Source: Elusimicrobiota bacterium
GTDB taxonomy: Bacteria; Elusimicrobiota; Endomicrobiia; CG1-02-37-114; JAHJSO01
Length of the DNA stretch: 64,000 nt
Assembly (NCBI GenBank): GCA_043826435.1
Contig: JBDRQF010000011.1
Location: 7,025-71,024 of the forward strand
Direction of reading: 5' to 3'
This document shows positions 26,317 to 56,530 of the stretch, piece by piece. The position numbers and the translations under genes were made by a program. Position 1 is the first letter of the stretch. Every line of letters starts with the position of its first letter. Under the pieces are notes generated by a model. It did not search any database and was not told the origin of the DNA. It was given only the letters and a program-made list of their open reading frames with translations.

Positions 26317-26320
26317 TGGT

Positions 26321-27811: not shown

Positions 27812-27826
27812 TTATTTATCCGCCGT

Positions 27827-28378
27827 TTAGCCGCCCGGGTCTAATTTTAAAAAATCCTTCAGGAATTTGGACATCACCGCTATGTAATGCCCCTTTTTTG
27901 TATTCTTATATCGCCCGTTTTCTATGACAATACAATTTGATTCAAGTATGTGATGCAGCCGTCTTTTAAAAACATCATCAGGCGGGTATTTGTGTTTCAT
28001 TTCCTCGTAAGAAAGTTTTTTTGCGGGAGATGTTTCAAATTCAATCATCATCCTGCCGGTAATGGTGCGGTCAATGAAAAAATAAAACTGGCAGTAGCCA
28101 ATGAATAAAAAGACATACAGGATGTACCCCGTTATAAAATTAAGTATTTTTGAAACAGACAAAACAACTCTGGAAGTCAAAAGCAGGTCGGCGGGTATTA
28201 GCATAAGGATGTTTACCGGGATTAGAATGTATGCTAATACATAGCCGAGCGTGAACGCATAAAAGGTGATTTTTATTGTTCTGAATCTCTCTTTTATATT
28301 GAATAGATGGAAAATAATTATGTGTATTATAAAAAACAGAATAAAACATAAAAAGCCAATAATTAATCCTTTTAACAT
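27827..28378 (-). CDS. Small membrane protein with C-terminal winged-helix-like domain (paralog A)
   Basis: 183 aa with three N-terminal hydrophobic helices, then a charged cytoplasmic domain (SYEEMKHKYPPDDVFKRRLHHILESNCIVIENGRYKNTKKG). About 45% identical to the adjacent gene. Confidence 0.6.
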   Translation of the reverse strand: MLKGLIIGFLCFILFFIIHIIIFHLFNIKERFRTIKITFYAFTLGYVLAYILIPVNILMLIPADLLLTSRVVLSVSKILNFITGYILYVFLFIGYCQFYFFIDRTITGRMMIEFETSPAKKLSYEEMKHKYPPDDVFKRRLHHILESNCIVIENGRYKNTKKGHYIAVMSKFLKDFLKLDPGG

Positions 28379-28390
28379 GTTTTTTGCTCT

Positions 28391-28945
28391 TTAACCGCCG
28401 GGCCAGACATTCAGAATTTTCTTTGATATTCCGAACAAATTTGCTAAACAGCGTCCCTTTGTCGTATTTCTGTAGTAGCCCGCCTCTTCAACGATGCATC
28501 CGGATTCAACCATGTGTCTGAAGCGTCTTCTATAAATCTCGTCGGGCGAATAGACATTTTTCAGTTCTTCAAAAGAGACGCGTTTTTCCGGATGTCTTTC
28601 CAGTTCAACCATTACTCTGAGAGAGAGAGAACGATCAATTATAAAATAAAACTCGCCGTAAGACATAAAAAGAAAAACATACAGCATAAAACCGGTTACA
28701 AAGTTGAGAACTTTTGATATGGCCAGGACTGTTTCGGATGTCTGCATCGGGTCGGCGGGTATTAGCATAAGGATATCCCCGGAAATTAAAGTATAAAGGA
28801 CGATATAAAGAGGGATGAGTGAAAGGAAAATATTTCTTATTACCCTGAACCTTTTTTCAAATGGACCCCGATAGTGGAATACAATGGAGTGCAATATAAG
28901 GAACAACATGAAACAAAAAAAACCTATCAGGAGTCCTTTTAGCAT
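28391..28945 (-). CDS. Small membrane protein with C-terminal winged-helix-like domain (paralog B)
   Basis: 184 aa, same architecture as paralog A (MLKGLLIGFFCF..., ...SFEELKNVYSPDEIYRRRFRHMVESGCIVEEAGYYRNTTKG). A tandem duplicate. Confidence 0.6.
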   Translation of the reverse strand: MLKGLLIGFFCFMLFLILHSIVFHYRGPFEKRFRVIRNIFLSLIPLYIVLYTLISGDILMLIPADPMQTSETVLAISKVLNFVTGFMLYVFLFMSYGEFYFIIDRSLSLRVMVELERHPEKRVSFEELKNVYSPDEIYRRRFRHMVESGCIVEEAGYYRNTTKGRCLANLFGISKKILNVWPGG

Positions 28946-28961
28946 TGTTTTAACCCGGGCA

Positions 28962-30494
28962 TTACTTCATAAAACTCTGAATTAATTTTATCATGTCAGA
29001 GGGTTGTATGGTTTCTTTATTGCCTAAATACTGTACCGCGAGGGATCCTGCGCAGTTGCCTACAAAGGCAACTATTTCCGGATGGACATTTAAATAGGTT
29101 AAGGGGGATGTAAGAGCCAGGACGGCGTCCCCTGCACCGATCGTGTCAACGATTTTCCATGCCAATGCGGGGACCCTGTATAAACTTCCTTTACTGTAAT
29201 ATAAAGAGCCTTCATGTCCCAGTGTTGTATTTATTTTGGGGCATTTGAGTTGTAGGGCGATTTTTTTAACCATATCTTCTAAATTGCCGTGCTGGTCATG
29301 GCATGCCAGACGGATTTCTTCGTGGTCTAAAACAACATAGTCAGCCCTCGAGTATTTGGTTATCAGATTATATCCTAAATTTGCACTATTGGATTGAGCC
29401 ATCACCACCAGGTAAGGAGAGTTGTTGCAGAGAATATTAACAATTCCATTTGTTATGAACCCATGTCCGAAATCAGCGGAAATTACCATGTCATATCCGC
29501 CCACCATTTTGTTGAATAATTTTATTACATCCTTTTCAAGTTCAGGGTTTATGGGCTGTTCATTTAGAGAGCATATTTCAAACATTTTTTGATTAAAGAC
29601 GCGTTCAAGGAAGCGGGATTTTATTATTGTGGATCCATCATCGCGATAACATGGAAATAATTTTATATTTTTTTTCAGACGCGTCCTGATAAAATATTCC
29701 TTGGTATTTTGTTTACCTAACAGCCCTATAAGACCCACTTCCTTTACAAATCCCGCGATGTGATTTGCCACACACAGGGCGCCACCCGGGTATGTCTCCC
29801 TATGAGTAAATTTTGATGAAACAACCGTTGATTTTGATGCCCGCTGAAACAGATGACAAAAATTATATTCATCAATGATGGGTTCTCCTATGATTAACAC
29901 TTTAAGTTTTTTTAACCCTTCAATTGCATCCAAAACATCCTCAAGGGTGAACTTCTGCGTAAAACCAGAAAGGAAGTGTTTTATTTTGTCAGGCAGGATG
30001 TCAAAATGGTCTTTAAGGAGTTTTGTTGAGGAGAATATCTCTTCGTCCGTAAAAATAAGTTTCCCGCCGATTGATTTGACCACGGATGCTTCCCGGTCAA
30101 GTCGCCCGGTTGCATCGCTTTTTACCGATTCAAAATCGCTACCTTTGACATATAAATCGGGCCTGATGGTTTTCAATGTTTCTTCGGCAGTGGGCCATTG
30201 ATTTATAGCGACATAATCCGCGCAGTCAAGAGCAGCGATTGAGTCCGCCCTTTGTTTTTCGTTAAAGACAGGTCTGCCCGGCCCTCTCTTTATATAACAG
30301 TCGGGCGTGATGGTTACAACCAGAACGTCCCCCATCTTTTTTGCCGCCTGCAGATGTTTAATATGGCCGAAATGCATTAAATCAAAACAGCCGTGGCAAA
30401 GGACAATTTTTTTGCCCTGTTTTTTGATTTTAGTTATTATTTTAGAAAGGGTATTTAAATCTTTGATTTTGGTTGACGGTTCTATTTTGCTCAC
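28962..30494 (-). CDS. Bifunctional sugar-phosphate nucleotidyltransferase (RfaE-domain-II/cytidylyltransferase-like) / PfkB-family sugar kinase, HldE-like with reversed domain order
   Basis: N-terminus: IVLCHGCFDLMHFGHIKHLQAAKKMGDVLVVTITPD (HxGH nucleotidyltransferase, RfaE domain II type). C-terminus: PfkB signature DTIGAGDAVLA. 510 aa. Confidence 0.8.
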   Translation of the reverse strand: MSKIEPSTKIKDLNTLSKIITKIKKQGKKIVLCHGCFDLMHFGHIKHLQAAKKMGDVLVVTITPDCYIKRGPGRPVFNEKQRADSIAALDCADYVAINQWPTAEETLKTIRPDLYVKGSDFESVKSDATGRLDREASVVKSIGGKLIFTDEEIFSSTKLLKDHFDILPDKIKHFLSGFTQKFTLEDVLDAIEGLKKLKVLIIGEPIIDEYNFCHLFQRASKSTVVSSKFTHRETYPGGALCVANHIAGFVKEVGLIGLLGKQNTKEYFIRTRLKKNIKLFPCYRDDGSTIIKSRFLERVFNQKMFEICSLNEQPINPELEKDVIKLFNKMVGGYDMVISADFGHGFITNGIVNILCNNSPYLVVMAQSNSANLGYNLITKYSRADYVVLDHEEIRLACHDQHGNLEDMVKKIALQLKCPKINTTLGHEGSLYYSKGSLYRVPALAWKIVDTIGAGDAVLALTSPLTYLNVHPEIVAFVGNCAGSLAVQYLGNKETIQPSDMIKLIQSFMK

Positions 30495-30539
30495 TATTTT
30501 TCTCCTTTTATTAAATTATACATTTTTTATGTTTGTAAA

Positions 30540-31643
30540 TCAAATAAAATTTATATGTATTGGGGGTTCACCTTTTGGTTTTTCCAAGGTGGTATTTCCG
30601 TGTTTTAAGTCCCACAAAAACTCATTTACCTTATGTTGAAGGCAAAGAGTCCCACACATTGTTTTAGCATCAAAATTATCTAAAGCAATAAAATTCATAA
30701 CCTCCCAATAGCGTTCGCTGCGCCATATCTCTTTAAAAGATTTATCTACAATGTTACCAATGTGATATCTTTTATACTTTCTGTTGAACAACATACCACA
30801 AGGAGCAACAAGTCCTGAACCAGAGAATTGGGTAATAAAAGGTGGGCCATAACATTGGGAATATTTACGTTTCCCTTCACTCAAGATTTTTGACCATTTC
30901 ACTTTCACTAAGTAGCCCTCATCAGAATATCCTTCCGCTTCTTTTAAAACATTAACCAATTCAAAATATTTAGAGTAATTTACTCCTAAACTACCTTTTT
31001 CATCATCACTGCAATGCTTAATGATTGAATAATCAACTCCCAGTTCCTTGCCAAGTTTAGCAAAAGGTATAATCTGGCCGACAAATTGAGGGAGTAAAAC
31101 CATCTGTAAACCCAAAGTAACAGAAAGATTTTTTTCTTTTTTTATTCTTACCGCTTCTTTTATAGTGTTAAGTACTTTATAAAAATGTTCTTCCTTGCAT
31201 CCCATTATTTGAGAATAACGGAGTGGCTCCGCAGCAGAAATATTAAATCTAAGATATGTTAAACAAGGCAAAATTTCTTCTAATTTTTCATCTTTTAATA
31301 AATAGCCGTTTGTTCCCAATGCCATATCCAGTCCATTTGCTTTGCCTCTTAATATCGCATCATATAAATGTGGCGAACAAGTGCTTTCGCCGTCACTGAC
31401 AAAACTTATTGCTTTCACACCAATTTCAGTAGCATCGTCAAGGAATCTGAAAATTACATCTTTTGTCATTCTCTTTTCGTCGTTTGTTTGTAGTTGGCCA
31501 TAGCAATAAATACATCTGTAGGTGCACCTTCTGGTCAGTGAACAATCTATGGTTATAGGAGCAATTCTTTCGCCTCTAAGCCATGCCTCTATTCTATCTG
31601 TATGCCAGAGCATTTTATGACCATCTAAGATTAATTCGTCCAT
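30540..31643 (-). CDS. Radical SAM domain protein (no B12 domain), sugar-modifying candidate
   Basis: CSLTRRCTYRCIYCYG CxxxCxxC motif near the N-terminus, plus C-terminal extra cysteines (possible auxiliary cluster). 367 aa. Confidence 0.8.
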   Translation of the reverse strand: MDELILDGHKMLWHTDRIEAWLRGERIAPITIDCSLTRRCTYRCIYCYGQLQTNDEKRMTKDVIFRFLDDATEIGVKAISFVSDGESTCSPHLYDAILRGKANGLDMALGTNGYLLKDEKLEEILPCLTYLRFNISAAEPLRYSQIMGCKEEHFYKVLNTIKEAVRIKKEKNLSVTLGLQMVLLPQFVGQIIPFAKLGKELGVDYSIIKHCSDDEKGSLGVNYSKYFELVNVLKEAEGYSDEGYLVKVKWSKILSEGKRKYSQCYGPPFITQFSGSGLVAPCGMLFNRKYKRYHIGNIVDKSFKEIWRSERYWEVMNFIALDNFDAKTMCGTLCLQHKVNEFLWDLKHGNTTLEKPKGEPPIHINFI

Positions 31644-31649
31644 ATGTAT

Positions 31650-32429
31650 TTATCCTTTATTTAATGCTTGATAACGCTTTGCCGAGACGGAGTCAGGATT
31701 AATAGTTTGTCTTTCTTTCTTAAAATAAATGTGTGTAAACAATAGAAAAAATCCCTTTATTACTTTATAAAAAGAATGAAAGGACAATGCTTTTGACTTA
31801 CCCTCCTTTCTTAGTTTTAATCTGTAAGGAACTTCTGCAAAAAGATATTTTCTCTTGATTAATCTTATCAAGATATCAGTTTGATAAAAAAAACCGCTAT
31901 TCCTATGTTCCATCTCACTTAATAATGATTTTCTGTAAAGAACAGTTCCATTAGTATAGTTTAGCGAGACAAAAAAGGTATTATTTATAACAAGTTTATA
32001 AACAAACGAAATAAAGTTTCTAAAAAAAGAACGTGTCCCTTTATTAAAAACAAAAGGAATAACTATATCAACATTTTCTAGAAGGTAAATATAACGAAAA
32101 ATTTCTCCGGGCTCATTTTCATTATCCCCCGGTAACATACAAACTATATTTCCTTTTGCATTATCTACTCCATCCCAGAAAGAAGCGCCAAGTCCTTTTG
32201 GTTTGTTATGGTTAATCATTCTAACTTTTTCAGGATTTTCTTCCATTTTGCGTTGTATAATATTAGGAGTTGTATCAGAACTCCCGTCATTAATTACAAC
32301 TATTTCGCCTTTTATCCCAAACTCCCCAAACGCAGATAGAGTATCATCAATAGATGAGGAAATATTTTTTTCTTCATTGAGCGCGGGCATTATAATAGTT
32401 AAAAATATGCTATCGGTTTTATTCGCCAT
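31650..32429 (-). CDS. Glycosyltransferase family 2 (DPM-synthase-like)
   Basis: LTIIMPALNEEKNI...IVVINDGSSDTT DXD-region GT-A signature. 259 aa. Confidence 0.8.
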   Translation of the reverse strand: MANKTDSIFLTIIMPALNEEKNISSSIDDTLSAFGEFGIKGEIVVINDGSSDTTPNIIQRKMEENPEKVRMINHNKPKGLGASFWDGVDNAKGNIVCMLPGDNENEPGEIFRYIYLLENVDIVIPFVFNKGTRSFFRNFISFVYKLVINNTFFVSLNYTNGTVLYRKSLLSEMEHRNSGFFYQTDILIRLIKRKYLFAEVPYRLKLRKEGKSKALSFHSFYKVIKGFFLLFTHIYFKKERQTINPDSVSAKRYQALNKG

Positions 32430-32435
32430 TTTCAG

Positions 32436-33485
32436 TTATTTTTTTAAAAGTTTTTTTATTTCAAAAACTATATTTTCAACATTTGGATAATAAATTTTTT
32501 CTAAAACAGAACTCGCGGGTGTAGGAATATCGGGCAGTGCTATTCTTGATACAGGTGCTTTTAGAAATTTCAGAGCATTTTCCATCAAAAATGAAGAAAT
32601 TTCAGAACTAATTCCGCAAAATTTATAACCAAAATCTAAAACAATCGCCCTTTGCGTTTTTTTAACTGAACTTAGAATTAAATCATAATCAAGAGGCTTT
32701 ATTGTTCGCAAATCTACGATTTCAATATTTATCCCTTCGTCCTCAAGTCTTTTTGCTGCTTCTATTGCTAAGATTGTCATAAATGAATTGGTGATTAAAG
32801 TTAGATCTTTTCCCTCTTTTCTTAATACAGCTTTTCCTAAGGGTATTAAGTAAGGATCCTTTGGGACTATATCCTTATAGTCATAAAGCCATCGGTGTTC
32901 AATAAAAATTACAGGTGACTCATCCAGAATGCTTGACAGTAGCAATCCTTTTACATCATAAGCAGTGGAAGGCATAACGACTTTAAGTCCGGGGACATGG
33001 GTAAATAAAGATTGAAGAGGTTGAGAATGTTGTGCAGCAGACCCCCAGCCACCACCTATTATTGCCCTTACTACAATGGGAACAGATGCTTTCCCACCAA
33101 ACATATATTTCCACTTTGCAGCATGGTTTATTAACTGGTCCATTGATAATAGCATGAAGTCAGTCCTCATGTGAACCAAGACGGGTCTCAACCCTGCCAG
33201 AGAAGACCCAATAGCAATTCCTGTTAAAGTATTTTCACATAAGGGCGTATCAAACACCCTATCACTGCCAAATTCTTTATGAAGATTTAAAGTTGTTCCA
33301 AAAGTTCCGCCGGGGTCATCAACTCCTTCTCCAAATATAAAAACCCTCTTATCTTCTTTTAATGCTAGATACAATGCTTCTTTAATAGCTTCCCTGTAAC
33401 TGATTTCCCTCTCTTTTTTAGACCCTGTTTTCCGAGTGGAAATTTTTATTTTAGATAAATCTATTGGTGCTTTATCCCAGGACAT
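32436..33485 (-). CDS. TPP-dependent 2-oxoacid dehydrogenase E1 beta subunit / transketolase C-terminal-like
   Basis: 349 aa with the ...FGEGVDDPGGTFGTT...FDTPLCENT... motif typical of PDH/acetoin-DH E1-beta. Paired with an E1-alpha just upstream. Confidence 0.85.
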   Translation of the reverse strand: MSWDKAPIDLSKIKISTRKTGSKKEREISYREAIKEALYLALKEDKRVFIFGEGVDDPGGTFGTTLNLHKEFGSDRVFDTPLCENTLTGIAIGSSLAGLRPVLVHMRTDFMLLSMDQLINHAAKWKYMFGGKASVPIVVRAIIGGGWGSAAQHSQPLQSLFTHVPGLKVVMPSTAYDVKGLLLSSILDESPVIFIEHRWLYDYKDIVPKDPYLIPLGKAVLRKEGKDLTLITNSFMTILAIEAAKRLEDEGINIEIVDLRTIKPLDYDLILSSVKKTQRAIVLDFGYKFCGISSEISSFLMENALKFLKAPVSRIALPDIPTPASSVLEKIYYPNVENIVFEIKKLLKK

Positions 33486-33487
33486 AG

Positions 33488-34447
33488 TCAGTAAACATCC
33501 TTATATAGATCTTTTTCTTGAGGATAAGGGCTTTTCAGAGCAAAATCCAGCGCTTCCTCTATCTCTTTTTCTACTTCTCCGTCTATCTGTTTAAGGTCTT
33601 TTTCTTTAAGTAGATTATTTTCCAGGATATATCTTTTGAATTTTTCCAGGGGGCATTTCTTTGTCCATTTTTCAACTTCTTCTTTTTGTCTGAATCCTTT
33701 CTCTACATCTGTTTCAGGACCAACATGAGTTCTCCATCTATATGTTCTTGTTTCAATCAAAGAAGGACCTGAACCATTTCGTGTTCTCGCTATAAATTTT
33801 TTGGCTGTTTTGTGTACCTCAAATACATCATTTCCGTCAATGCAAATACCTGGCATGGAGAAAAAATCCGCTATCTTATAAATGTCAGTATTCACCTGTC
33901 TAACTTTTTGAAGAGAGTTTGTTGCATAAAAATTATTTTCACATACAAATATTATAGGCAACTTCTTTAACGAAGAAAAATTAAGAGATTCATAAAAAAC
34001 ACCTTCATCAACTGCCCCATCGCCAAAAAATGCTATAACAATTCTATTATCTTTCTTTATTTTAGAAGCCAATGCCGATCCAACTGCAATAGGTATTCCC
34101 CCGCCCACAATTGCAGAAGTTCCCAATATAGAATGTTTAACAGATATCATATGCATTGAACCACCTTTTCCGGACGAACAGCCAGTTTTTTTTCCATAAA
34201 GTTCTGCGAATAAAGGTTTTAAATCCACACCTTTGGCAATTAAATGACCGTGGTTTCTATGATTACTGAAGACATAATCTTCTTTTTTTAAGTTGATGCA
34301 AAAACCCACAGCAATAGCTTCTTGACCTATATATAAGTGAACAGGGGTGCACATATCCTGTTTTGGGTAAATTTGAATTATCTTCTCTTCAAATTTTCTA
34401 ATTTTTGTAAGGTAGTAATAAATTTTTTTTAATGTATCAGATGTCAT
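33488..34447 (-). CDS. TPP-dependent E1 alpha subunit (thiamine diphosphate-binding)
   Basis: GDGAVDEGVFYESLNFSSLKKLPIIFVCENNFYA TPP-binding GDG...N motif. 319 aa. Confidence 0.85.
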   Translation of the reverse strand: MTSDTLKKIYYYLTKIRKFEEKIIQIYPKQDMCTPVHLYIGQEAIAVGFCINLKKEDYVFSNHRNHGHLIAKGVDLKPLFAELYGKKTGCSSGKGGSMHMISVKHSILGTSAIVGGGIPIAVGSALASKIKKDNRIVIAFFGDGAVDEGVFYESLNFSSLKKLPIIFVCENNFYATNSLQKVRQVNTDIYKIADFFSMPGICIDGNDVFEVHKTAKKFIARTRNGSGPSLIETRTYRWRTHVGPETDVEKGFRQKEEVEKWTKKCPLEKFKRYILENNLLKEKDLKQIDGEVEKEIEEALDFALKSPYPQEKDLYKDVY

Positions 34448-34467
34448 ATCTCTTTATTATATAAAAT

Positions 34468-35583
34468 CTAACCGGAAAAATCAAGATAAAATTTTCTTAT
34501 TTTATCAACGATATAGTCCAGTTGTTTTTCTGTCAATTCAGGATAAACGGGCAAACTTAAAATCTCTCCCGCCAGACGTTCGGTTACGGGAAAAGCGCCT
34601 TTTTTATATCCTAACGGTTTAGCCGCCCTCTGCATATGTATGGGCAGCGGATAGTGGATTTTTGTTTCAATCCCGTTTTTTGCAAGGTAGGTTTGAAGCC
34701 GGCCCCTCTTTTCTGCCCGGATTATAAAAGTATGGTAAACACATTTTTCATGGCTGTTTTCTTCCGGTGTTTTTACGAATCCATTCATGTCAGATAAATT
34801 TTTTATATAGTATTTTGCAACCTTTCTTCTGCCTTCAATCCATCTGTCCAGATATTTAAACTTAACATTGAGTATTGCCGCCTGCATAGTATCAAGCCGG
34901 CTGTTATACCCCCACTGCGGAGATTCATTTCTGTTTTTTAATCCGATGTTTCTGAGTCGGATTAATTTTTGGTATAGTTTTTTATCGCCTGTCGTGATGA
35001 AACCCCCGTCACCGCAGGCATTCAGTGTTTTTAATGGATGTAAACTGAAACAGCCGAATGTCCCGAATGAACCCACTCTCTTTCCTCTGTATTCTGCGCC
35101 GAGTGACTGTGCAGCATCTTCAATAATATACAGGTTGTATTTTTTTGCTGTTTCCATAATCGGGTGCATGTCCGCTGTCTTTCCTGTTAAATGCACCAGA
35201 AGGATTGCTTTTGTTTTCCGGGTGATTTTTTCAGATATAAGGTCCGGGTCAATATTCATATCTTCCCGGACATCTACAAAAACCGGCTTTAGCCCTGCTG
35301 TGATTATGCTTGAGGTTGTAGAGAGAAAGGAGTTTGGGACCGTAATAACCTCATCGTCATCTTTTAACCCTAACGATTTCATCGCAAGAAAGAGTGCATC
35401 AGTTCCTGAGTTGACCCCGACAGCGTATTTTGTATCGCAGTAGTGCGCCGCCCTTTGTTCAAACAGCGAGACCTCTTTGCCGAGAATAAAGTCGGCCCTT
35501 TCAAGGGTTTTTGAAACCGCCGCGAGTATCTCTCTTTTCAGTTTTTTATGCTGGGCTTTCAGGTTTATGTAAGGTATTTTCAT
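34468..35583 (-). CDS. DegT/DnrJ/EryC1/StrS family PLP-dependent sugar aminotransferase (copy 1)
   Basis: 371 aa aspartate-aminotransferase-fold family. FSLHPLKTLNACGDGGFITT contains the conserved lysine region. The ...GVNSGTDALFLA... N-terminus is typical. Confidence 0.85.
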   Translation of the reverse strand: MKIPYINLKAQHKKLKREILAAVSKTLERADFILGKEVSLFEQRAAHYCDTKYAVGVNSGTDALFLAMKSLGLKDDDEVITVPNSFLSTTSSIITAGLKPVFVDVREDMNIDPDLISEKITRKTKAILLVHLTGKTADMHPIMETAKKYNLYIIEDAAQSLGAEYRGKRVGSFGTFGCFSLHPLKTLNACGDGGFITTGDKKLYQKLIRLRNIGLKNRNESPQWGYNSRLDTMQAAILNVKFKYLDRWIEGRRKVAKYYIKNLSDMNGFVKTPEENSHEKCVYHTFIIRAEKRGRLQTYLAKNGIETKIHYPLPIHMQRAAKPLGYKKGAFPVTERLAGEILSLPVYPELTEKQLDYIVDKIRKFYLDFSG

Positions 35584-35630
35584 AAAAATTTTTTGGCGGA
35601 TATATTGGCCGTTTACAACGGATATTTTAC

Positions 35631-36629
35631 CTATTTCAACCCTATGGATTTCATCTTCCTGACATTGTAATAATTTATGTCCTGCCAGTCAACAATCCTT
35701 TTTGTTTCAAATGCAATTTTAATGTCGCTGATTGCGTCCCTTATTGTTTTTGCAGGAATAAGGCCCAGTTCTTTTTTGATTTTTTCGGAAGATATGTGGT
35801 ATGACCTGTTGTCTTTTGTCGGGACGGTCTCTATCGGTACGTGGGCACTAACCGTTTCTTTTACCATATTAGCAAGATCCATTACAGTATAATTTTCATA
35901 GCCGGCATTATATATTTTGCCGGCAATTTTTTCCTTTGGGACTTCTAATAATTTCACATAATAGTCGGTTATATCTTCAATATGAATATTTGGCCGTTTC
36001 TGTCCGCCGCCGAAGACAGTAATTTTGTTTGTGTTTAAAGCATTTGCGGTGAGGATATTAACTGTCAGGTCAAGCCGCATCCTCGGCGAAAATCCACACA
36101 CAGTAGCAGGTCTGATTACAGTGCAGGTGAACTCAGGGGTCTGGTTTTTCAGCAGGAATTCCTCGCACAGCACTTTGTATTTTGAGTAGTCAGTAAGCGG
36201 CTCAAGAGGCAGTGTCTCTGTTACATTCTCTTCTTTTTTTACGCCGTACACGCTTGAACTAGAAGCAAAAACGAATAGTCCGACCCCCGATTTTTTTGAA
36301 ACATCAACCAGATCAAGGAATGCATCGTAATTTATGGATTTTGAAAGTAACGGGTCAAGTTCATAACTTGGGTCGTTGGAAATGCACGCAAGATGTATAA
36401 CCGCGTCCGTTCCCGGTATTATTTTTTCAAGCAGAGCCCTGTCCCGGATGTCTCCCTTTACCTGTTGCAGGCCCGGGTGATTCTTTACTTCGTCCAGGAC
36501 GTGTTTGCCGTATATGTACAAATCAATGACTTTTACCCTGTACCCTTTTTTCAGGAGTTTGGGGACAAGGACGCTGCCGACGTATCCCGCCCCGCCCGTT
36601 ACAAGTATATTTTTTTGTTTATGGTTCAT
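35631..36629 (-). CDS. NAD-dependent epimerase/dehydratase (extended SDR)
   Basis: ILVTGGAGYVGSVLV Rossmann motif and YSKYK catalytic motif. Start moved to MNHKQKNIL to limit overlap with the upstream gene. Confidence 0.85.
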   Translation of the reverse strand: MNHKQKNILVTGGAGYVGSVLVPKLLKKGYRVKVIDLYIYGKHVLDEVKNHPGLQQVKGDIRDRALLEKIIPGTDAVIHLACISNDPSYELDPLLSKSINYDAFLDLVDVSKKSGVGLFVFASSSSVYGVKKEENVTETLPLEPLTDYSKYKVLCEEFLLKNQTPEFTCTVIRPATVCGFSPRMRLDLTVNILTANALNTNKITVFGGGQKRPNIHIEDITDYYVKLLEVPKEKIAGKIYNAGYENYTVMDLANMVKETVSAHVPIETVPTKDNRSYHISSEKIKKELGLIPAKTIRDAISDIKIAFETKRIVDWQDINYYNVRKMKSIGLK

Positions 36630-40597: not shown

Positions 40598-41602
40598 TTA
40601 ACTTATCTTTATTATTTTGCCCCTGTTCTTTGCGGACTCCTCAGCTGCAGCAAGCACTTTTACGACGTTCACGCCGTAAGTTATGTCACTTTTGGGTTTT
40701 TTGTTTTTCTCTACACTCTCAAGGAAATCGGCGCATTCAGTTTTCAACGGTTCGGCTACCGGTAAGCGGGGGCTTATAATGTCCCCCGAGCGGTAGGTTA
40801 ACTGGAACTCTCCGAATGTCTCAGGGTTTTTCACGACGCCCTCGTTGTAAATCTTTATCTTTTCAACCGGCTCAATGTCGTCGTAAACCGCCATCCGCTT
40901 GCTTCCTATGAGAACGGTCCTGCGGAGTTTGCACGGGGCAAGCCAGCTTATGTGCAGATGCGCGACGATGTTTTTGCTGAAGAACAACGTTATGTATGCC
41001 ACCTCAAATATTTCTTTGCGTATGTACGATTTTCCGTGGCATGCTACCGCATGTGGAGTTTCGCCGAGCCAGTATATCATAATTGATGCATCGTGCGGGG
41101 CGAGGTCCCACACCACGCTGACGTCCGGCTGGAACAGTCCCAGGTTAACCCTGGAAGAATCAATGTAAAAGAGCCGGCCCAGCGTTTTTTTGTCAAGGAG
41201 TTCCTTCACCCGTATCACGGGCGGGCTGTAAAGGAAGGTATGGCTGACCGAGACAATTTTTTTCTTTTTTTCGGAGATGTCCAGGAGTTTCTTCGCCTCT
41301 TCAACGGAGGTGCAGAGGGGTTTTTCAATTAGAACGTTTTTCCCCGCCTCCAGGAATTTTTTTGCAAGCGGGAAGTGGGTTGATACCGGCGTTGCGATGG
41401 CGACTGCGTCAATTGTATTGTCCGCCAGTATCTGGTCGTAATTTTTCGTCAATTTTACGTAAGGATACTTTTCCCCTGCTTTCCTGAGGTTCTTGTCGTG
41501 CAGGTCACAGATGTATTTCAGATTACAGCCGGGCAACTCAAAGAAGTTCCTTGCCAGGTTCGGCCCCCAGTAGCCATAACCGATTATCGCAATGTTTATC
41601 AT
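40598..41602 (-). CDS. Gfo/Idh/MocA family NAD(P)-dependent sugar oxidoreductase (WbpB-like)
   Basis: INIAIIGYGYWGPNLARNF N-terminal Rossmann motif of the Gfo/Idh/MocA family. 334 aa. Confidence 0.85.
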   Translation of the reverse strand: MINIAIIGYGYWGPNLARNFFELPGCNLKYICDLHDKNLRKAGEKYPYVKLTKNYDQILADNTIDAVAIATPVSTHFPLAKKFLEAGKNVLIEKPLCTSVEEAKKLLDISEKKKKIVSVSHTFLYSPPVIRVKELLDKKTLGRLFYIDSSRVNLGLFQPDVSVVWDLAPHDASIMIYWLGETPHAVACHGKSYIRKEIFEVAYITLFFSKNIVAHLHISWLAPCKLRRTVLIGSKRMAVYDDIEPVEKIKIYNEGVVKNPETFGEFQLTYRSGDIISPRLPVAEPLKTECADFLESVEKNKKPKSDITYGVNVVKVLAAAEESAKNRGKIIKIS

Positions 41603-41749
41603 AATGCCTCCGTATCGTGTGTCATTGCGAGGAGCGTTAGCGACGAAGCAATCTCGTTATTAAAATAAGTAGATTGCCACGCTCCCTTCGGTCGCTCGCA
41701 ATGACACTTTGATTGCCACGCCCTTCGGGCTCGCGATGACAATGTTTAT
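41590..41749. repeat. Composite REP/MITE-like element made of three palindromic units (TGTGTCATTGCGAGG-N-GAAGCAATC), flanked by the 10-bp direct repeat CAATGTTTAT
   Basis: Unit 1 (direct) ~41619-41655. Units 2 and 3 (inverted) ~41672-41705 and ~41711-41740. CAATGTTTAT occurs at 41590-41599, overlapping the start codon of the downstream gene, and again at 41740-41749. Confidence 0.6.
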
Positions 41750-41845
41750 ATCCCTTTGTTTTCTGCGTTTGTATCAAGCGGTAATTATACCATATTTAAT
41801 GAAAATATTCAAATTTTCTGCGCTGCGTATATTTTTTGCGACGGT

Positions 41846-42550
41846 TTACGACAGGAGATACAGGATAATGTCAGCGGCGGCCTTGAGCACGACTGCGATC
41901 TTGTTGCCCGTGGCTCCGCCGCCCGTCCTCGGGAGGTGTTCAATGGATACCTCAACCGTTTTACCCCCGCCTTTCAGGACGCTTAAAAAAATCTCGGCAT
42001 GTATAAAAGCGCCCCTGGATTTAAAACGGATGTTTTTAAGTATTTCCCTGCGGAAGAGGACTACGCTGTCAACGTCAAAAACCCGCTTCAGTCCCATGAA
42101 ACTTATTACCATATTGTAAATCCAGGCATTCATCCGTCTTACGGCGTTGTCTTTTCTGGCAATTCTCCTGCCGATTATATAATCGTAATTGGCTGTCCAA
42201 GGGAGTAATTTGTGAATCTCCGCGGCGGGTATCTGCCCGTCTCCGGGTATAAAAAATACCCATTCCTTTGTGGGATAGGAGACGACGTCCTTTAACGTCG
42301 GCCCGATGCCCATATTTTTATCATGACGGTATATGCGTAGTCCGGGATGATGAGCGGATAACTCCCGGAGAATTTTTGCGGTTGAGTCGGTGGAACCGTC
42401 GTCAATTACTACGACCTCGTAGTCGTCAGTCAGAGCGGACAGCACTTTAAAGCTGTCCCCCACGACCCTGGCGATGGCTCCTTCCTCATTGTAAGCCGGG
42501 ATACTTATTGATATGGACTTCATAGTAGTGATGGGGTCAGGTCTTGACAT
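41846..42550 (-). CDS. GT2 polyprenyl-phosphate glycosyltransferase (DPM synthase/GtrB-like)
   Basis: ISISIPAYNEEGAI...VVVIDDGSTDST...HDKNMGIG. 234 aa. Confidence 0.8.
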   Translation of the reverse strand: MSRPDPITTMKSISISIPAYNEEGAIARVVGDSFKVLSALTDDYEVVVIDDGSTDSTAKILRELSAHHPGLRIYRHDKNMGIGPTLKDVVSYPTKEWVFFIPGDGQIPAAEIHKLLPWTANYDYIIGRRIARKDNAVRRMNAWIYNMVISFMGLKRVFDVDSVVLFRREILKNIRFKSRGAFIHAEIFLSVLKGGGKTVEVSIEHLPRTGGGATGNKIAVVLKAAADIILYLLS

Positions 42551-48710: not shown

Positions 48711-49943
48711 CTATGTGTTTGTCCCCCCTGATTTTTCTATGGCAGACACATACAGCCGCTCAAATTTTTCAGCGGACAGCTGCCATGTGTAGTTTTTCAA
48801 CACCATATCCCGTCCCGCGGCAGAAATCCTTCCGGCTAACGCTCTGTCTTTTAGCAATTGAATAATTTTATTTGCAAAACTTTGTGGCTCGGACGAGCCA
48901 TCAGCAGCGATTAAAATATTTTCACCATCTTTTGTTTCGTTTATCCCGTCGCATGCAATTTGGGTTGCAACAACAGGCCTGGCGAGGGCCATCGCCTCCA
49001 GTATTTTATATTTAATCCCTGTGCCTGTTCTCATCGGACATATATTTACAGACGCCCTGCTCATCCACTCCCTGATGTCCCCTACCTCACCTGTTACGAT
49101 GCAGTTTTTGTCAGCCGAGAGTGAGGTTATTTCTTTTGATGGATTTTTGCCGACGATATAAAATTTTAATTCAGGAAATTCCTTTAACACCAGAGGATAT
49201 ATTTCTCTATAGAAATAAAGTACCGCATCCACATTGGGGAAGAAGTTCATAACCCCGCGAAAAATCACAGATGGGTAGTCCTCATCGTATGATATCGGTT
49301 TAAAATATTCAGGGTCAATCCCGACAGGAATAACCTCAATATCGGAATTCTTACCCAGCCAGTCCCGGTCAACCGCCGACACAACGGCCGTTTTCCGGGT
49401 TTTTGAAGAAACATAATTTTCCCACCGTTTCATCTTTTTGTATTGAGAAATCAGGTAAAATTTTTTCAGCAAATTTTTTTCTTTCCCGGCATTTCTTAAA
49501 AAATGCAGGGACATAGCGTCGTGCGGGTAATATACTACCGACAGTCCTTTTAATGCCCTGACATATATTGAAGTATTGACGAAATGCAGGTGGGCGATAT
49601 CAAATTTTGTTCCGGAGATAACCTCCGAAATCTTTTCTGTCAGTTCCCTTGAATAAAACTGAAGGACAGAAAACGGTTCTTTTTCAAAGATAAGATTTTT
49701 GAGTCGCCGAATCGCTAATTTCGGAATAGTATGAATAACTGTAATAATCCTGCTGCAGTATTTTTTCAGTTCGGGGACATATTTTTCTTCTTCAGACGAT
49801 TCAATTAAAGATGCCAGGACAATAGTGTGTTTTTTAGAGAGTTCTCTTATTAGATTGTAGGCGGACATCTTTATGCCTTCATTAACCGGGAAAGGAAAAG
49901 TGTGGGTTATAAAAAGTATGTCCATCGGGTAATTATGTGTCAT
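48711..49943 (-). CDS. Glycosyltransferase family 4
   Basis: 410 aa GT-B with a C-terminal GTGIKYKILEAMALARPVV motif. Confidence 0.75.
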   Translation of the reverse strand: MTHNYPMDILFITHTFPFPVNEGIKMSAYNLIRELSKKHTIVLASLIESSEEEKYVPELKKYCSRIITVIHTIPKLAIRRLKNLIFEKEPFSVLQFYSRELTEKISEVISGTKFDIAHLHFVNTSIYVRALKGLSVVYYPHDAMSLHFLRNAGKEKNLLKKFYLISQYKKMKRWENYVSSKTRKTAVVSAVDRDWLGKNSDIEVIPVGIDPEYFKPISYDEDYPSVIFRGVMNFFPNVDAVLYFYREIYPLVLKEFPELKFYIVGKNPSKEITSLSADKNCIVTGEVGDIREWMSRASVNICPMRTGTGIKYKILEAMALARPVVATQIACDGINETKDGENILIAADGSSEPQSFANKIIQLLKDRALAGRISAAGRDMVLKNYTWQLSAEKFERLYVSAIEKSGGTNT

Positions 49944-50016
49944 TGCGAGGGGCGAAGCCCCGAAGCAATCTCATTTTATGATAATGTCATTGCGAGGCGC
50001 AGCTGAAGCAATCCCA
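49936..50016. repeat. Two direct copies of the same palindromic REP-like unit (TGTGTCATTGCGAGGGGCGAAGCCCCGAAGCAATCTC; TGTCATTGCGAGGCGCAGCTGAAGCAATCCC)
   Basis: Copy A ~49937-49972 is a near-perfect hairpin ATTGCGAGGGGC-GAA-GCCCCGAAGCAAT. Copy B ~49984-50015. They overlap the 3' end of the upstream CDS. Confidence 0.6.
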
Positions 50017-51083
50017 ATAACAGCACTGCTCATCAGCCGGTTTCGGTCGCAGTGTGATTTTTCTGTTTCCACCGAGATGCCCAGTTCTTCATACAATCGC
50101 TCATACTGTTTCCTGACGATAGAATAATCAAAATTTGATGCAATCTGTTTTGCCTTTTCAGAATTTGTTTTGCGGAGTTGCGGGTCTGACAGATATTTTC
50201 TTATGTTTTCTGCGAGTGCTTCCGAGTTGTGATTTGGGTGGAACAATGCACACCCCCTGAACGGCTCAAATGTGCCATAATCAGGAACACACAGAGGCAC
50301 ACCCGCAGAGGCGGACTCATATACAGCGCTCCCCATTGCTTCGCCATCCTCGTCGGATGAGTTAATATAGATTGTTGATGCATCAAAAGCAGAAGCGAGC
50401 CCGGCGGCGTCAAGGTGCCCGGTAAAAATTATATTCCTGCCGGAAACCAGGGAGTCCAGCACCGCCTGTCCGATTTTAAATCCCCCGTACACCCCTTTTG
50501 CCGTAAGTTTGTCTTTATAGCCGGCGATTATCAGTTTTATTTTTGCAATCTGACAGGCACCGATAATGATCTCGGGGTTTTTATGATAACTCGTTCCGAT
50601 GGTAAAGGCAAATGGTTCACCGGGGCTGATTCCAAACTTTTTTCTGAAGCCCGCGCCGTTTGTCTCCGGATGTTTTTTTGAAAAATACTCATAGTCAATG
50701 GGTAGCGGTATTACGGCAAGTTTCTCCGGTTTGATTCCCTGCCTGATGTAATTCTGCCTTGCCCAATCGCTCTGCACTACAATTCTGTCGTACCTGTTGA
50801 AAAGGAAGCGCCGGACGATTACTGCATACCACTTCTGCCCTATGAAATTATTGTGAAAAGTATAAACGGACTTTCTGGCAAACAGGCAACTCATTTCGGG
50901 GAAAGGCAAACCCCTACCGTGCCCGTGGACATCCTGGCCCCAGATTTTTTTAATTACCGTAAAGGATCTTACCCCGGCTACCGGGACGACTTCCCCTCCT
51001 GTAATTTTAGCCGGAAGTCCAAGATAATCGCCCCTCGGTGTTGACGTATAATGCGGGTAAAAAGGCACCACTGCTTTCATCAT
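49971..51083 (-). CDS. Glycosyltransferase, GT-B (group 1-like)
   Basis: 370 aa. The C-terminal region EAMGSAVYESASAGVPLCVPD is GT4-like. The last ~20 codons read through the REP repeat, so the true C-terminus is uncertain. Confidence 0.6.
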   Translation of the reverse strand: MMKAVVPFYPHYTSTPRGDYLGLPAKITGGEVVPVAGVRSFTVIKKIWGQDVHGHGRGLPFPEMSCLFARKSVYTFHNNFIGQKWYAVIVRRFLFNRYDRIVVQSDWARQNYIRQGIKPEKLAVIPLPIDYEYFSKKHPETNGAGFRKKFGISPGEPFAFTIGTSYHKNPEIIIGACQIAKIKLIIAGYKDKLTAKGVYGGFKIGQAVLDSLVSGRNIIFTGHLDAAGLASAFDASTIYINSSDEDGEAMGSAVYESASAGVPLCVPDYGTFEPFRGCALFHPNHNSEALAENIRKYLSDPQLRKTNSEKAKQIASNFDYSIVRKQYERLYEELGISVETEKSHCDRNRLMSSAVIGIASAAPRNDIIIK

Positions 51084-51964: not shown

Positions 51965-52643
51965 TATCGGTCAAAACAAAAATAAACTGGTACCCGAAAA
52001 GTGTCGGGCAAAGAGAATAAATTTTTTTAAGAAATTTCCAGCCACCAGGTATTCTTAAAAATACTCCATGAAACCTTGGAATACCTTTATCGGGGTCAAT
52101 AGATAAGTGTTCTATTTTTAGCCCAGATGACTCAATCATTTCTTTTGCTGTCTTCAAAGTAAAAAATCTCAGATGTGTATTGTCCAGAATCCCATAGTCC
52201 TCATAATCAAATTTGCCAAAAAGCAACCGTACTCTAATTGAGAAGTGAGCAATATTTGGCAGTGTGATTATTACACGCCCCGCGGGAGCCAGAAATTTTT
52301 TTATTTTTTGCAGCACTCCCAGAGGGTTTACTAAGTGTTCCAATACATTCATACACAGGATAAAATCAAATTTCCGGTCTATTTGCTGAAGTATTTGTTC
52401 ATTTTCAATGTTTCCCACCAGTATTTTCTGATAATATGGCTTTGCCATTTCTGCCGAGTCAGGGTCAATTTCAACTCCCCAAGACTCGCAGTTCACTTTT
52501 TCTTTCAGGTATTTTCCGATATAACCGGTGGCACACCCGATTTCAAGTACTTTGGAATTTGGTTTGACTAATTTTACTACCTGATAGTCAGTCCACAACG
52601 GACAGATTTTATCTATATCATAATTTTGGCGATGGTATTTCAT
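51942..52643 (-). CDS. Class I SAM-dependent methyltransferase
   Basis: VLEIGCATGYIGKYL (motif I) and DFILCMNVLEHL (motif II). ATGA overlap with the downstream small ORF. Confidence 0.8.
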   Translation of the reverse strand: MKYHRQNYDIDKICPLWTDYQVVKLVKPNSKVLEIGCATGYIGKYLKEKVNCESWGVEIDPDSAEMAKPYYQKILVGNIENEQILQQIDRKFDFILCMNVLEHLVNPLGVLQKIKKFLAPAGRVIITLPNIAHFSIRVRLLFGKFDYEDYGILDNTHLRFFTLKTAKEMIESSGLKIEHLSIDPDKGIPRFHGVFLRIPGGWKFLKKIYSLCPTLFGYQFIFVLTDIGSKGNA

Positions 52644-53070
52644 TGTTTTGTTTCTAATGCTTCGTCTATTTTACTAATCAAGTATTCAAAATTCTTATCA
52701 GAGTAATATTTCCGCATTCCTGCTTCAAGAATTGAACCAAGTGCGACCCTATAGTCGGTTATCTTGAATGATTTTATTATATTTTTTATCCTGATTAAAT
52801 TTTCTTTTTTTGTATTCAGGGGTATCCCCCGCCTCAATAAAAATTCTATATCAAAACAATCTCTGACCTCACCCCTGTTTAAGAATGTCTCTATTTTGTT
52901 TTTCATCATTTGTTCAAGTGTTGCACTTCCTTATTGAACTTGGGAGTTTAAATAAGTCATTTTATCAATGTTTGTTAGTTAACAATTTTGTTAACTAGTT
53001 ATACTTAATAATTTTTTAATTGTCAATACCCTTTTGAGATAATGTCGTAATTTTGGCGATGGTATTTCAT
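52622..53070. repeat. 22-bp perfect direct repeat (AATTTTGGCGATGGTATTTCAT) at 52622-52643 and 53049-53070, flanking a ~427-bp segment
   Basis: Both copies include the TGA/ATG (tcat) overlap. The second copy encodes a vestigial MKYHRQNYDIISKGY* reading frame that duplicates the methyltransferase start. Confidence 0.7.
52640..52909 (-). CDS. Hypothetical 89-aa protein carried on a ~427-bp insert
   Basis: ORF only, with no recognisable motif. It lies inside a segment bounded by 22-bp direct repeats. Confidence 0.35.
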   Translation of the reverse strand: MMKNKIETFLNRGEVRDCFDIEFLLRRGIPLNTKKENLIRIKNIIKSFKITDYRVALGSILEAGMRKYYSDKNFEYLISKIDEALETKQ

Positions 53071-53975
53071 CGTTTAACCGTCCTCAGAATTTCTTCTGCC
53101 CGGTGGTCATAGGTGTGTTTTAAAACAACTTCTCTATGTCCTGTCAGAGCAATCTCCTCTCGTTCTGTTTCGTGTTTCAGGTAATAGTCAATTTTTTCCA
53201 ACAGGTCATTCCCATTATCATATAAAACCAGATGTTTTTTATCTTGGAAAAGTTCTTCCAGTCCTGCTTCCAGTTTTAACCGGTCAGTGATAAGTAAACT
53301 TCCACAAGAAAGCGCTTCGAAAACACGCATATTCAAATCACCCCTTATACTTTTATTGAAAACTATCTTTGCTTGACTATATATTTTAGCCATATCTTCA
53401 CCGAATATTCCTGGAAATACTTGGATATTAAATTTCTGACCAATCAATTTTAACAATGTAACTCTCTCTGGATAAACCATAGGATTGGTGTTACCTACAA
53501 ATACAACATCATAAATTTTGGGCAATTCATATTTTCTATGTATTTCGTGGTCACATGCAACTGGCAACCATTGACTACTATTCCCAAATTTGCACATATA
53601 GTTTTTATGGCAGGAGAAAACATAAGAAAAATCGTTTTTTAAATAGGTGTGAAATTTTATTTTATCTGGTTCATGGGTATCTAATGACCATAATATCGCA
53701 GGGATACTAAGTTTGTTGAATCCTATTAGATGATATTGGCCAGCGGAATCAACTTCAACAATAATGTCAAACGATTTTTTCATTTTTTTTATCACCGATT
53801 GAACATAAACAGGAAGACCTTTAGGAATAAAAAATGGTAGATGGTTGTATAAATTAGTCCAGTATGGCGTTTTACCCAAATCAAAACTTTCCACAAAATG
53901 TTTTTTTCTTAATGCTTTTTCTAAATACATTCCAGTTGTCCAGGGAATTTTATTATATGCCAGAAATATGTTCAT
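53067..53975 (-). CDS. CgeB-like / GT-B C-terminal-domain glycosyltransferase candidate
   Basis: 302 aa. The C-terminal region (VFVGN...ERV..L...G..VFPG..., FEALSCGSLLITD) resembles the CgeB/GT1 C-terminal domain. Confidence 0.45.
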   Translation of the reverse strand: MNIFLAYNKIPWTTGMYLEKALRKKHFVESFDLGKTPYWTNLYNHLPFFIPKGLPVYVQSVIKKMKKSFDIIVEVDSAGQYHLIGFNKLSIPAILWSLDTHEPDKIKFHTYLKNDFSYVFSCHKNYMCKFGNSSQWLPVACDHEIHRKYELPKIYDVVFVGNTNPMVYPERVTLLKLIGQKFNIQVFPGIFGEDMAKIYSQAKIVFNKSIRGDLNMRVFEALSCGSLLITDRLKLEAGLEELFQDKKHLVLYDNGNDLLEKIDYYLKHETEREEIALTGHREVVLKHTYDHRAEEILRTVKR

Positions 53976-55543: not shown

Positions 55544-55605
55544 CATATATCCATTTATCTTTTTTCGCAAAAAATTACCTCGTTAATCTATTTTGTCAGG
55601 GTGGT

Positions 55606-56358
55606 TTAATCCTGATCACAACCTTGTTTAGAAGCAACTGTAATAAAAACACTTCCGTACATGAAAGAAATTGCTCGTTTATCAATTAAAGCAATAAACC
55701 TTTTTACAAAATCCTTAATTTTATTACCAGTAAGAGGAATTTTAGGAACTAATTTGCAAAATTCTACTTTAAGCCCACTTTCAGTAAGAATTCCTTTCAT
55801 CTTTTCCTCATCAAACGATGCTAAATGTTCTGAAGGAGGAAAAACAGCATAACAATCCGGACAGACAACTTTTTGAATATTTTCTTTATAGGGAACAGTA
55901 ATTATAACTTTCCCCAACGGCTTTAGAACTCTTTTTATTTCTTTAAGCCCTTTTTCAAGAGTGTCCGGCAAAAGATGTTCTAATACCTCAGTCACAAACA
56001 CATAATCAAAAAAACATGTCACAAGCGGCAAATTTGTTATACTCCCCTCTTTAAGAATAATATTTTTATTTAAAGAACTAAATTTTTCTTTTAGACTTTT
56101 TATATTTTGGCGAGAAACATCACATCCATAGACTTCAAATCCTATATTATAAAGTTCATCCATAAGTGTCCCTATTCCACATCCTATATCAAGGGCCTTT
56201 CCAGGCAACCTAAAAAACTTTTTTACATTTTTAATAACACATTTATAAAAATCTGCTGGCAAAAACATACCTTCAGAGAGTTCCGGCAATGTTTCATACA
56301 TTTCCCATAAACTTTTTATTTTTTCTTCGGCCCATTCTACTTCGTGAATTTTTTTCAT
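55606..56358 (-). CDS. Class I SAM-dependent methyltransferase
   Basis: ALDIGCGIGTLMDEL (motif I) and DYVFVTEVLEHL. C-terminal CPDC suggests a small Zn-ribbon-like insertion. Confidence 0.8.
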   Translation of the reverse strand: MKKIHEVEWAEEKIKSLWEMYETLPELSEGMFLPADFYKCVIKNVKKFFRLPGKALDIGCGIGTLMDELYNIGFEVYGCDVSRQNIKSLKEKFSSLNKNIILKEGSITNLPLVTCFFDYVFVTEVLEHLLPDTLEKGLKEIKRVLKPLGKVIITVPYKENIQKVVCPDCYAVFPPSEHLASFDEEKMKGILTESGLKVEFCKLVPKIPLTGNKIKDFVKRFIALIDKRAISFMYGSVFITVASKQGCDQD

Positions 56359-56385
56359 TTACCGGAGGCCCCCTTAACTATCTTT

Positions 56386-56526: not shown

Positions 56527-56530
56527 GGCG

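Follow-up and report, generated by a model that had tools for sequence, protein, structure and literature searches.

Immediately upstream of a gene for a Gfo/Idh/MocA-type sugar dehydrogenase in an Elusimicrobiota bacterium lies an array of three short structured repeats, and the question is whether a mobile element landed here recently, whether the repeats are a regulatory region of the operon, or whether they belong to something else. The array is part of a window of 64,000 nucleotides (GenBank assembly GCA_043826435.1, contig JBDRQF010000011.1, positions 7,025 to 71,024 of the forward strand), by which we mean the whole stretch of DNA analyzed. A preliminary description of this stretch had taken the array for an insertion resembling a miniature inverted-repeat transposable element (MITE), built from repetitive extragenic palindromic (REP) units and flanked by a target-site duplication (TSD). 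We arrive at a different answer: the three units (U1 to U3) and two more elsewhere in the window (U4 and U5) are very probably copies of a multi-phylum hairpin repeat of the type represented by the Neisseria Transformation Sequence (NTS) and the related SRM motifs, that is, cognate DNA of the small single-domain nucleases of GIY-YIG type that make up the Ssn family (Chenal et al., Nat Commun 2025, PMC11893778). The family itself, the covariation within its hairpin, its pair architecture, its link to a GIY-YIG gene and its lack of TSDs are direct observations.

The gap between the GT2 glycosyltransferase gene and the Gfo/Idh/MocA gene (41603-41845, 243 bp) is partly occupied by units of about 35 nt, one in direct and two in inverted orientation, and in this respect both the coordinates and the strands of the preliminary description were borne out. 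The genes and units are as follows:

40598-41602, minus strand: Gfo/Idh/MocA (sugar-dehydrogenase) gene
41620..41656, plus strand: U1, intact, core 41621-41653, T-GTCATTGCGAG-GAGCGTTAGCGAC-GAAGCAATC-TCG, located by pattern match and family consensus
41654..41671: spacer of 18 nt between U1 and U2, which form a tail-to-tail pair
41669..41706, minus strand: U2, intact, core 41672-41705, T-GTCATTGCGAG-CGACCGAAGGGAGC-GTGGCAATC-TAC
41708..41741, minus strand: U3, one mismatch (GTCATCGCGAG), core 41711-41740, T-GTCATCGCGAG-CCCGAAGGGC-GTGGCAATC-AAA
41846-42550, minus strand: GT2 gene
49938..49973, plus strand: U4, core 49939-49970, T-GTCATTGCGAG-GGGCGAAGCCCC-GAAGCAATC-TCA, in a short gap between two GT4-type genes
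49985..50016, plus strand: U5, core 49986-50013, T-GTCATTGCGAG-GCGCAGCT-GAAGCAATC-CCA, in tandem with U4

Within the 64 kb, the exact GTCATTGCGAG occurs only in the gap units and at 49939 and 49986. An additional hairpin candidate at 63467-63485 was dropped, as it lies within an open reading frame (ORF) and its frequency is at chance level.

The preliminary description had spoken of palindromic stem-loops, and the units are indeed hairpins, although not plain palindromes. Comparison of 171 exact-pattern and 254 fuzzy copies gave the consensus Y-GTCATTGC-GA-G[variable stem-loop]C-GAA-GCAATC-Y-M-G, in which a 5-bp base stem (ATTGC/GCAAT) is followed by a GA/GAA internal loop and an inner stem-loop that varies in sequence and length (middle 4-27 nt). 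A short form, GAG-CGAAGC-GAA, is common, and so is a long form with a second, nested tandem G·A/A·G (GAG-GA-GC-GAA-GC-GA-C-GAA), to which U1 belongs. The flanks are constrained as well: in a logo of 251 units, position -1 is Y in 93%, while positions +1, +2 and +3 are Y, M and G-biased, respectively, and U1, U2, U4 and U5 all read T-GTCAT...AATC-Y. That the hairpin itself is conserved is evident from covariation: across 42 units of equal length, 87% of the cells are paired and 6 of the 10 pairs have changes on both sides, whereas none of 500 shuffles reached this value and slid controls gave 23-55%. The base stem covaries too (ATTGC/GCAAT, ATTCC/GGAAT, ATCGC/GCGAT). As DNA, single units of the window fold weakly (z +1.4 to -2.3), U4 being the best-folding one (z = -2.2). 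A search of Rfam gave no match at the gathering score in the window and only chance-level matches (E of 4.6 or more) when 41560-41860 was scanned at E ≤ 10.

The unit is widespread. When a collection with one representative genome per species was scanned with the exact pattern GTCATTGCGAG-N5-25-GWRGCAATC, at least 120 loci were retrieved, and about a dozen phyla are represented among the matches listed. These include isolates (Bradyrhizobium, Sphingomonas, Pedobacter and Helicobacter rodentium) as well as metagenome-assembled genomes of Chloroflexi, Patescibacteria, Oscillospiraceae, Cyanobacteria, Planctomycetota, Nitrospirota, Zixibacteria, Desulfobacterota, Armatimonadota, Melainabacteria and Neisseriaceae, and they also span Alpha- and Gammaproteobacteria and Bacteroidota. 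At least 120 further loci were found in IMG/VR viral contigs. Fuzzy matching in the fetched loci recovered 254 units, compared with 5 in shuffled sequences. Given its spread over many phyla, the unit is not a lineage-specific REP; it is absent from the REP tables of Nunvar 2010, which contain GTAG-type REPs, and text matches to it in the literature (CATTGCGAG with GCAATC; GCGAAGC) were primer noise alone.

The units lie mostly in intergenic regions or at gene edges, and their arrangement is far from random: 78 of 97 adjacencies are tail-to-tail (+-) pairs with spacers of 7-60 nt, so that the outer ends of a pair read TGTCATTGCGAG...CTCGCAATGACA. U1 and U2 together form such an inverted pair of 87 bp (41620-41706), which is the canonical miniature element of the family; its spacer carries a subterminal inverted repeat whose arms (41648-41661 and 41664-41677) are 86% complementary. 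U3, with a C·A mismatch in its base stem, is an additional solo unit and stands in tandem with U2, an arrangement (--) that accounts for only 2 of the 97 adjacencies. As U3 and U2 have the CCGAAGGG center in common, U3 is probably a local duplicate. Some viral contigs from IMG/VR contain head-to-tail tandem arrays on one strand (L259, 2670-2856 and 5030-6932; L283, 2695-2818; L220, 11383-11520), with up to 15 units at a period of about 40 nt in L259 and 4 units at a period of 33 nt in L283; their spacing is CRISPR-like, in contrast to the usual inverted pairs.

Which gene belongs to these repeats? An all-versus-all blastp of 817 ORFs from 120 loci (874 kb) revealed no recurrent neighbor family and neither a Y1 nor any other recurrent transposase. 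With GIY-YIG regular expressions applied to the neighboring ORFs, the strict version returned one irrelevant match and the relaxed version led to an Oscillospiraceae locus (L067), in which a 98-aa GIY-YIG gene is enclosed by a unit pair. The same unit-gene-unit arrangement occurs in a second phylum, in a locus from Planctomycetota (L081). Homologues with 78% identity or more number in the thousands, and most reside on contigs below 2 kb (0.5-2 kb), a distribution that points to multi-copy DNA at which assemblies break. Among the database proteins compared (P0121-P0240), longer versions begin with extra N-terminal residues translated from units (SLRGAKRRGNL, HCEERSDVAIS, LLLAMT; e.g., P0148, P0152 and P0182). 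At 80 metagenome loci encoding homologues, a GTCATTGCGAG-class unit is present within 200 nt upstream of the gene in 27 of 73 cases and downstream in 22 of 74, and at 18 of the 80 loci such units enclose the gene, unit(+) lying 20-90 nt ahead of the start codon and unit(-) 10-50 nt beyond the stop codon. A rule that is independent of stem class (GTC + X5 + N4-45 + rc(X5) + C) detected hairpins both upstream and downstream of the gene at 42 of 63 loci, with 391 matches versus 51 in shuffles. The stem classes at homologue loci are GTCATTCT (38), GTCATTGC (32, the class of the window units), GTCATCCT (25), GTCATTCC (14) and GTCACCCT (10); GTCATTCC is the class of the Neisseria NTS, and homologues at about 60% identity are flanked by canonical hairpins of the NTS class (e.g., TGTCATTCCCGTGAAAACGGGAATCCAG in L160). 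Still other hairpin classes stand beside GIY-YIG homologues (TGTCACCCTGAGG...AGGGTC, TGTCATCCTGAAC..., TGTCATTCTGAGCGAAGCGAAGAATC, GTGTCATTTCGA...GAAATC; loci L144, L146, L150, L151, L154, L167, L193, L194, L203 and L206). The GIY-YIG loci thus display a spectrum of co-varying pairs of nuclease and hairpin. A narrow hidden Markov model (HMM) found no Ssn-like ORFs in 120 viral loci.

Complete unit-gene-unit elements measure 386-432 bp and contain a gene for 96-98 aa with Pfam PF01541 as its only domain. Just inside the units they have a subterminal inverted repeat (e.g., tcccggta...taccggga) that is common to complete elements and short pairs, including the U1/U2 pair of the window. Since both forms have the terminal units and the subterminal repeats in common, the short pairs look MITE-like, i.e., like internal-deletion derivatives. 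That part of the MITE-like, REP-like characterization which concerns a dispersed structured family thus stands, with the inverted pairs as gene-less derivatives that share the ends of their parent; the part concerning a TSD does not.

What the units may do can be sketched by analogy with Neisseria. The NTS, CGTCATTCCCGCGMAVGCGGGAATCYRG, a directional hairpin, occurs in hundreds of copies and borders ssnA, which encodes a 94-aa single-domain GIY-YIG protein (cd10448); SsnA binds the NTS as single-stranded DNA of one strand only, neither as RNA nor as duplex, and cuts a few nucleotides upstream of it (PMC11893778). In N. meningitidis, SsnA lowers transformation by NTS-containing DNA, and related SRM motifs flank 71% of SsnA homologues across phyla; the published biochemistry covers only the Neisseria and Wolbachia homologues (PMC11893778). 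The window unit is likewise directional (5'-Y-GTCAT-stem ... stem-ATC-YMG-3') and would act as single-stranded DNA: the GTCAT...AATC strand would fold into a hairpin, the nuclease would bind it, and a nick would be placed a few nucleotides 5' of GTCAT, as deduced from the published biochemistry. A complete element of about 400 bp would then consist of unit(+), subterminal repeat, ssnA, subterminal repeat and unit(-), with the 87-bp U1/U2 pair as its gene-less internal-deletion form and U3 as an extra local copy. We regard the window units as a new stem class of the NTS/SRM-Ssn system that the published search pattern misses.

Whether such elements move is a further issue. Chenal et al. already remark on the insertion sequence (IS)-like architecture of NTS-ssnA-NTS and its likeness to REP/RAYT (REP-associated tyrosine transposase) and IS200/IS605 systems, and the mobility hypothesis is theirs (PMC11893778). 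The subterminal repeats common to short pairs and ssnA elements support, without proving, the idea that NTS-ssnA-NTS units are or were mobile through their GIY-YIG nuclease. It is conceivable, although in our view doubtful, that the GTCATTGCGAG...GCAATC class is a major, recently spreading lineage of a TSD-less IS-like element whose 'transposase' is a GIY-YIG single-strand nuclease of about 95 aa and which has left gene-less pairs of about 80-100 bp in at least 12 phyla and in phage contigs, the window array being one footprint. If this were true, there would be a family of prokaryotic transposons that acts on single-stranded DNA hairpins with GIY-YIG as its catalytic core, in parallel to HUH enzymes.

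Several points weigh against assigning the units to the NTS/SRM-Ssn system. The published SRM search string, HGTCWYN(0-2)YYVSBRHN(0-5)WNVSBRGN(0-2)RNCYNB, which the Neisseria NTS consensus matches, matches none of the 254 units and no site in the window, because it requires YY after GTCWY where the window class has GC; formal membership therefore rests on architecture and gene link. The GIY-YIG protein has no NCBIfam match, and the PDB gives a weak match to UPF0213 (1zg2). The 64-kb window itself contains no ssnA homologue detectable by tblastn or with an HMM of 41 homologues. Finally, flanks that match over at least 10 nt, as seen at the array, are rare by chance and arise in only about 0.3% of permuted cluster flanks.

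It is this last point, together with the inverted termini of the U1/U2 pair, that speaks for a classical MITE, i.e., a cut-and-paste, non-autonomous element whose insertion directly 5' of the gene would have duplicated a 10-bp target, ATAAACATTG. The features in question are:

41590..41599: proximal copy of CAATGTTTAT, codons 2-4 (ATA AAC ATT G) of the Gfo/Idh/MocA gene
41600..41612, minus strand: Shine-Dalgarno sequence (GGAGG) and ATG of the Gfo/Idh/MocA gene, between the repeat copies
41740..41749: distal copy of CAATGTTTAT, preceded by GAT in gene sense

The direct repeat is exact (10/10) at both positions, just as described. The proximal copy had been said to contain the start codon; in fact the ATG (41600-41602) adjoins it from outside and the copy corresponds to codons 2-4. 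Nor is the element bounded by the repeat, as had been proposed, for the placement is asymmetric: the proximal copy lies 20 nt off the end of U1, and the distal copy reaches 1-2 nt into U3, over its 5' T-G. Homology around the two copies stops at the 10-mer. In the family at large, the longest substring common to the left and right flanks of 78 clusters with full flanks follows the distribution of the permutation control, and the handful of longer matches consist of A/T runs or of portions of the repeat itself. Flanking duplications were found neither at the 12 complete elements nor at the 18 listed short pairs. The hairpin family, then, makes no TSDs, and the linked gene encodes a GIY-YIG nuclease and no DDE transposase. 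Local 10-mer repeats are, moreover, frequent in the window (106 pairs within 300 bp versus 27 in shuffles). A third exact CAATGTTTAT at 61713-61722 (minus strand) lies inside an unrelated ORF of the Polysacc_synt family (61260-62681), has no link to units and is probably an A/T-rich coincidence; the window holds 3 copies versus 0.29 expected.

Related loci point in the same direction. The sole close relative, a contig of 1171 bp that ends within the unit array (L123), encodes a Gfo/Idh/MocA protein with 90% identity. It retains GGAGGCA..ATGATAAA, the Shine-Dalgarno and ATG region, and has homologous coding sequence, ATAAAGATTG, at the position of the proximal repeat, so the interval between the repeat copies cannot all be inserted DNA; the comparison identifies the Shine-Dalgarno sequence and ATG as ancestral. 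It also carries a decayed unit at the position of U1 (outer end TCCTCGCAATCACA versus TCCTCGCAATGACA in the window); a unit was thus present before the two lineages split, and the array is too old for the recent insertion that had been envisaged. A syntenic but distant locus (L124, Elusimicrobia RIFOXYA2_FULL_39_19, 64% aa identity) has an AT-rich, unit-free spacer of 68 bp between the GT2 and Gfo genes; this would suit an insertion, and it also means that the units are no ancient regulatory region. A precise empty site (GGGAT-ATAAACATTG-CGATAATC, without DNA between the repeat copies) was not found, the spacer in L124 not being precise and L123 ending in the array, and relatives of the GT2 protein do not exceed 57%. 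Taken together, these data largely refute the classical MITE, which we consider improbable. With no excess of flank repeats in the family, copies that do not abut the element ends and an ancestral Shine-Dalgarno sequence and ATG between them, the 10-bp repeat is not a TSD; most likely it is a coincidence or a local micro-duplication and no insertion scar. As chance seldom produces flanks that match over 10 nt, we retain a small probability for a duplication event specific to this locus.

Could the hairpins instead be maintained as RNA elements in cis, namely as transcript stabilizers, processing sites or attenuators of Gfo/Idh/MocA translation? REP elements are known to stabilize upstream mRNA, which provides a precedent. 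Read in gene sense, the RNA of the whole gap has an unusually stable fold (-71.6 kcal/mol, z = -3.7) owing to pairing between U2 and U1, and the resulting hairpin of about 38 bp ends 21 nt before the ATG. There is also a promoter-like site upstream of the array:

41784..41812, minus strand: TTGAAT-17-TGnTATAAT, sigma-70-like, a 10/12 consensus match only

This match suggests an internal operon promoter, and, if it is used, the three units would lie in the 5' untranslated region of the Gfo/Idh/MocA mRNA, where a large hairpin beside the Shine-Dalgarno sequence could possibly affect mRNA stability or translation as a side effect. The outer end of the unit, too, when read outward (GCAATGACA), offers a -35-like ATGACA, followed after 16-17 nt by a weak -10-like hexamer, and such outward promoter-like halves are present at both loci of the window (41598-41625 and 49915-49943, both on the minus strand). 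Outward-facing promoter halves are a known trait of IS and MITE ends. As the reason for the existence of the family, however, a role in RNA is unlikely. In the window, both unit orientations are found with respect to the genes, and across the loci of the family the units show no significant strand bias relative to co-directional flanking genes (40 same versus 28 opposite), which is why we treat an RNA effect as a side effect; in addition, the same 35 nt adjoin unrelated genes across about a dozen phyla, and SsnA reportedly fails to bind its sequence as RNA (PMC11893778). A terminator role, which had also been considered, is not supported, as a hairpin with a T-run is absent from 41603-41845 and likewise from the locus at 49.9 kb. 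Mobilization as REPs or bacterial interspersed mosaic elements (BIMEs) by a RAYT (an HUH Y1 transposase), or as ends of IS200/IS605, would explain short, directional, mostly extragenic hairpins in alternating orientation without TSDs, and the resemblance is remarked upon in PMC11893778. Nevertheless, we regard it as highly improbable: the units begin with GTCAT and not with GTAG/GTGG, the 874 kb around them contain no Y1 transposase or other recurrent family, the gene between units encodes a GIY-YIG nuclease, and REPs are lineage-specific, whereas the unit hardly varies from phylum to phylum. Copies of a hairpin repeat recognized by Ssn-type nucleases thus remain the preferred explanation for U1 to U5.

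The array is surrounded by a glycan-biosynthesis cluster, whose genes around the site are all on the minus strand; further members encode a DegT aminotransferase, PMT_2 proteins, a hexapeptide transferase and GT4s. The sequence of the window is also present, without differences, as contig JAHJSO010000248.1 in GCA_018830385.1, a metagenome-assembled Elusimicrobiota genome. Two low-GC islands (24000-36000 and 52000-60000, 32-39% versus about 47-49% elsewhere) suggest that the cluster is a mosaic, horizontally exchanged locus. Both unit clusters are located in higher-GC parts near module boundaries. At the second of them, U5 and the spacer code for the last ~14 residues (GIASAAPRNDIIIK*) and the stop codon of a GT4-like ORF (49971-51083), and the CAT within the GTCAT of U4 supplies the ATG of the longest version of ORF 48711-49943, whose true start is more likely the ATG at 49925 (MDILFITH...). 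The hairpin units hence reshape ORF ends at 49971-50016 and 49923-49943.

A stretch of odd intergenic DNA in a surface-glycan cluster thereby gains a concrete identity, and a fresh MITE insertion with a TSD can be set aside. Beyond this locus, a stem class almost unchanged over about a dozen phyla escapes the published SRM string, so that present counts of Ssn-related repeats are probably underestimates. The repeats also have practical consequences: they break metagenome assemblies, the contig of the closest relative (L123) being an example, and they give rise to spurious unit-derived peptides at the ends of database proteins (HCEERSDEAIS, SLRGAKRR.NL, LLAMT, ARND), which is an issue of annotation quality.

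Comparison with known systems places the family more precisely. With classical MITEs such as Correia, RUP and Nezha it has in common short, gene-less, often intergenic and possibly co-transcribed elements with inverted ends and a gene-carrying parent; those elements, however, are DDE-derived, lineage-restricted and have TSDs of fixed length, whereas the hairpin family is TSD-less and present in many phyla. Alternating hairpin repeats that flank the gene of their own enzyme, the absence of a target duplication and presumed single-stranded DNA substrates are reminiscent of REP/BIME-RAYT and IS200/IS605, but the fold is GIY-YIG and not HUH, and the 5' motif is GTCAT and not GTAG/GTGG. Moreover, REP/RAYT and IS200/IS605 are HUH Y1 transposases acting on single-stranded DNA hairpins, while Ssn mobility is a hypothesis. 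REP sequences are also specific to their lineages, unlike the hairpin unit. The dRS3 repeat of Neisseria (ATTCCC-N8-GGGAAT) resembles the unit in its palindromic core, where a single compensatory swap would turn the base ATTCC/GGAAT into ATTGC/GCAAT, and in its clustering around surface-related genes; it differs in lacking the oriented GTCAT and ATC-YRG flanks and in being confined to Neisseria.

The closest parallel is the NTS/SRM-Ssn system. The window class departs from the NTS in its stem base (ATTGC/GCAAT), its GA/GAA internal loop and its variable inner stem (middle 4-27 nt), and from the published Ssn cases in its host, as Elusimicrobiota is not named among the taxa in the available text of PMC11893778. 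On the other hand, both consist of a directional hairpin of about 30 nt with a 5' (Y)GTCAT, a C directly after the palindrome and a YRG-like tail; both are multi-copy, mostly intergenic and divided into many co-varying stem classes; and both, at the level of the family and not of the window locus, have the repeat-gene-repeat layout around a single-domain GIY-YIG gene of about 95 aa. The NTS and the window units have GTCATT...AATC-Y-R/M-G in common, their stem bases differ by one compensatory base-pair swap, and homologues of the same GIY-YIG gene bear either the Neisseria class (GTCATTCC...GGAATC) or the class of the window units.

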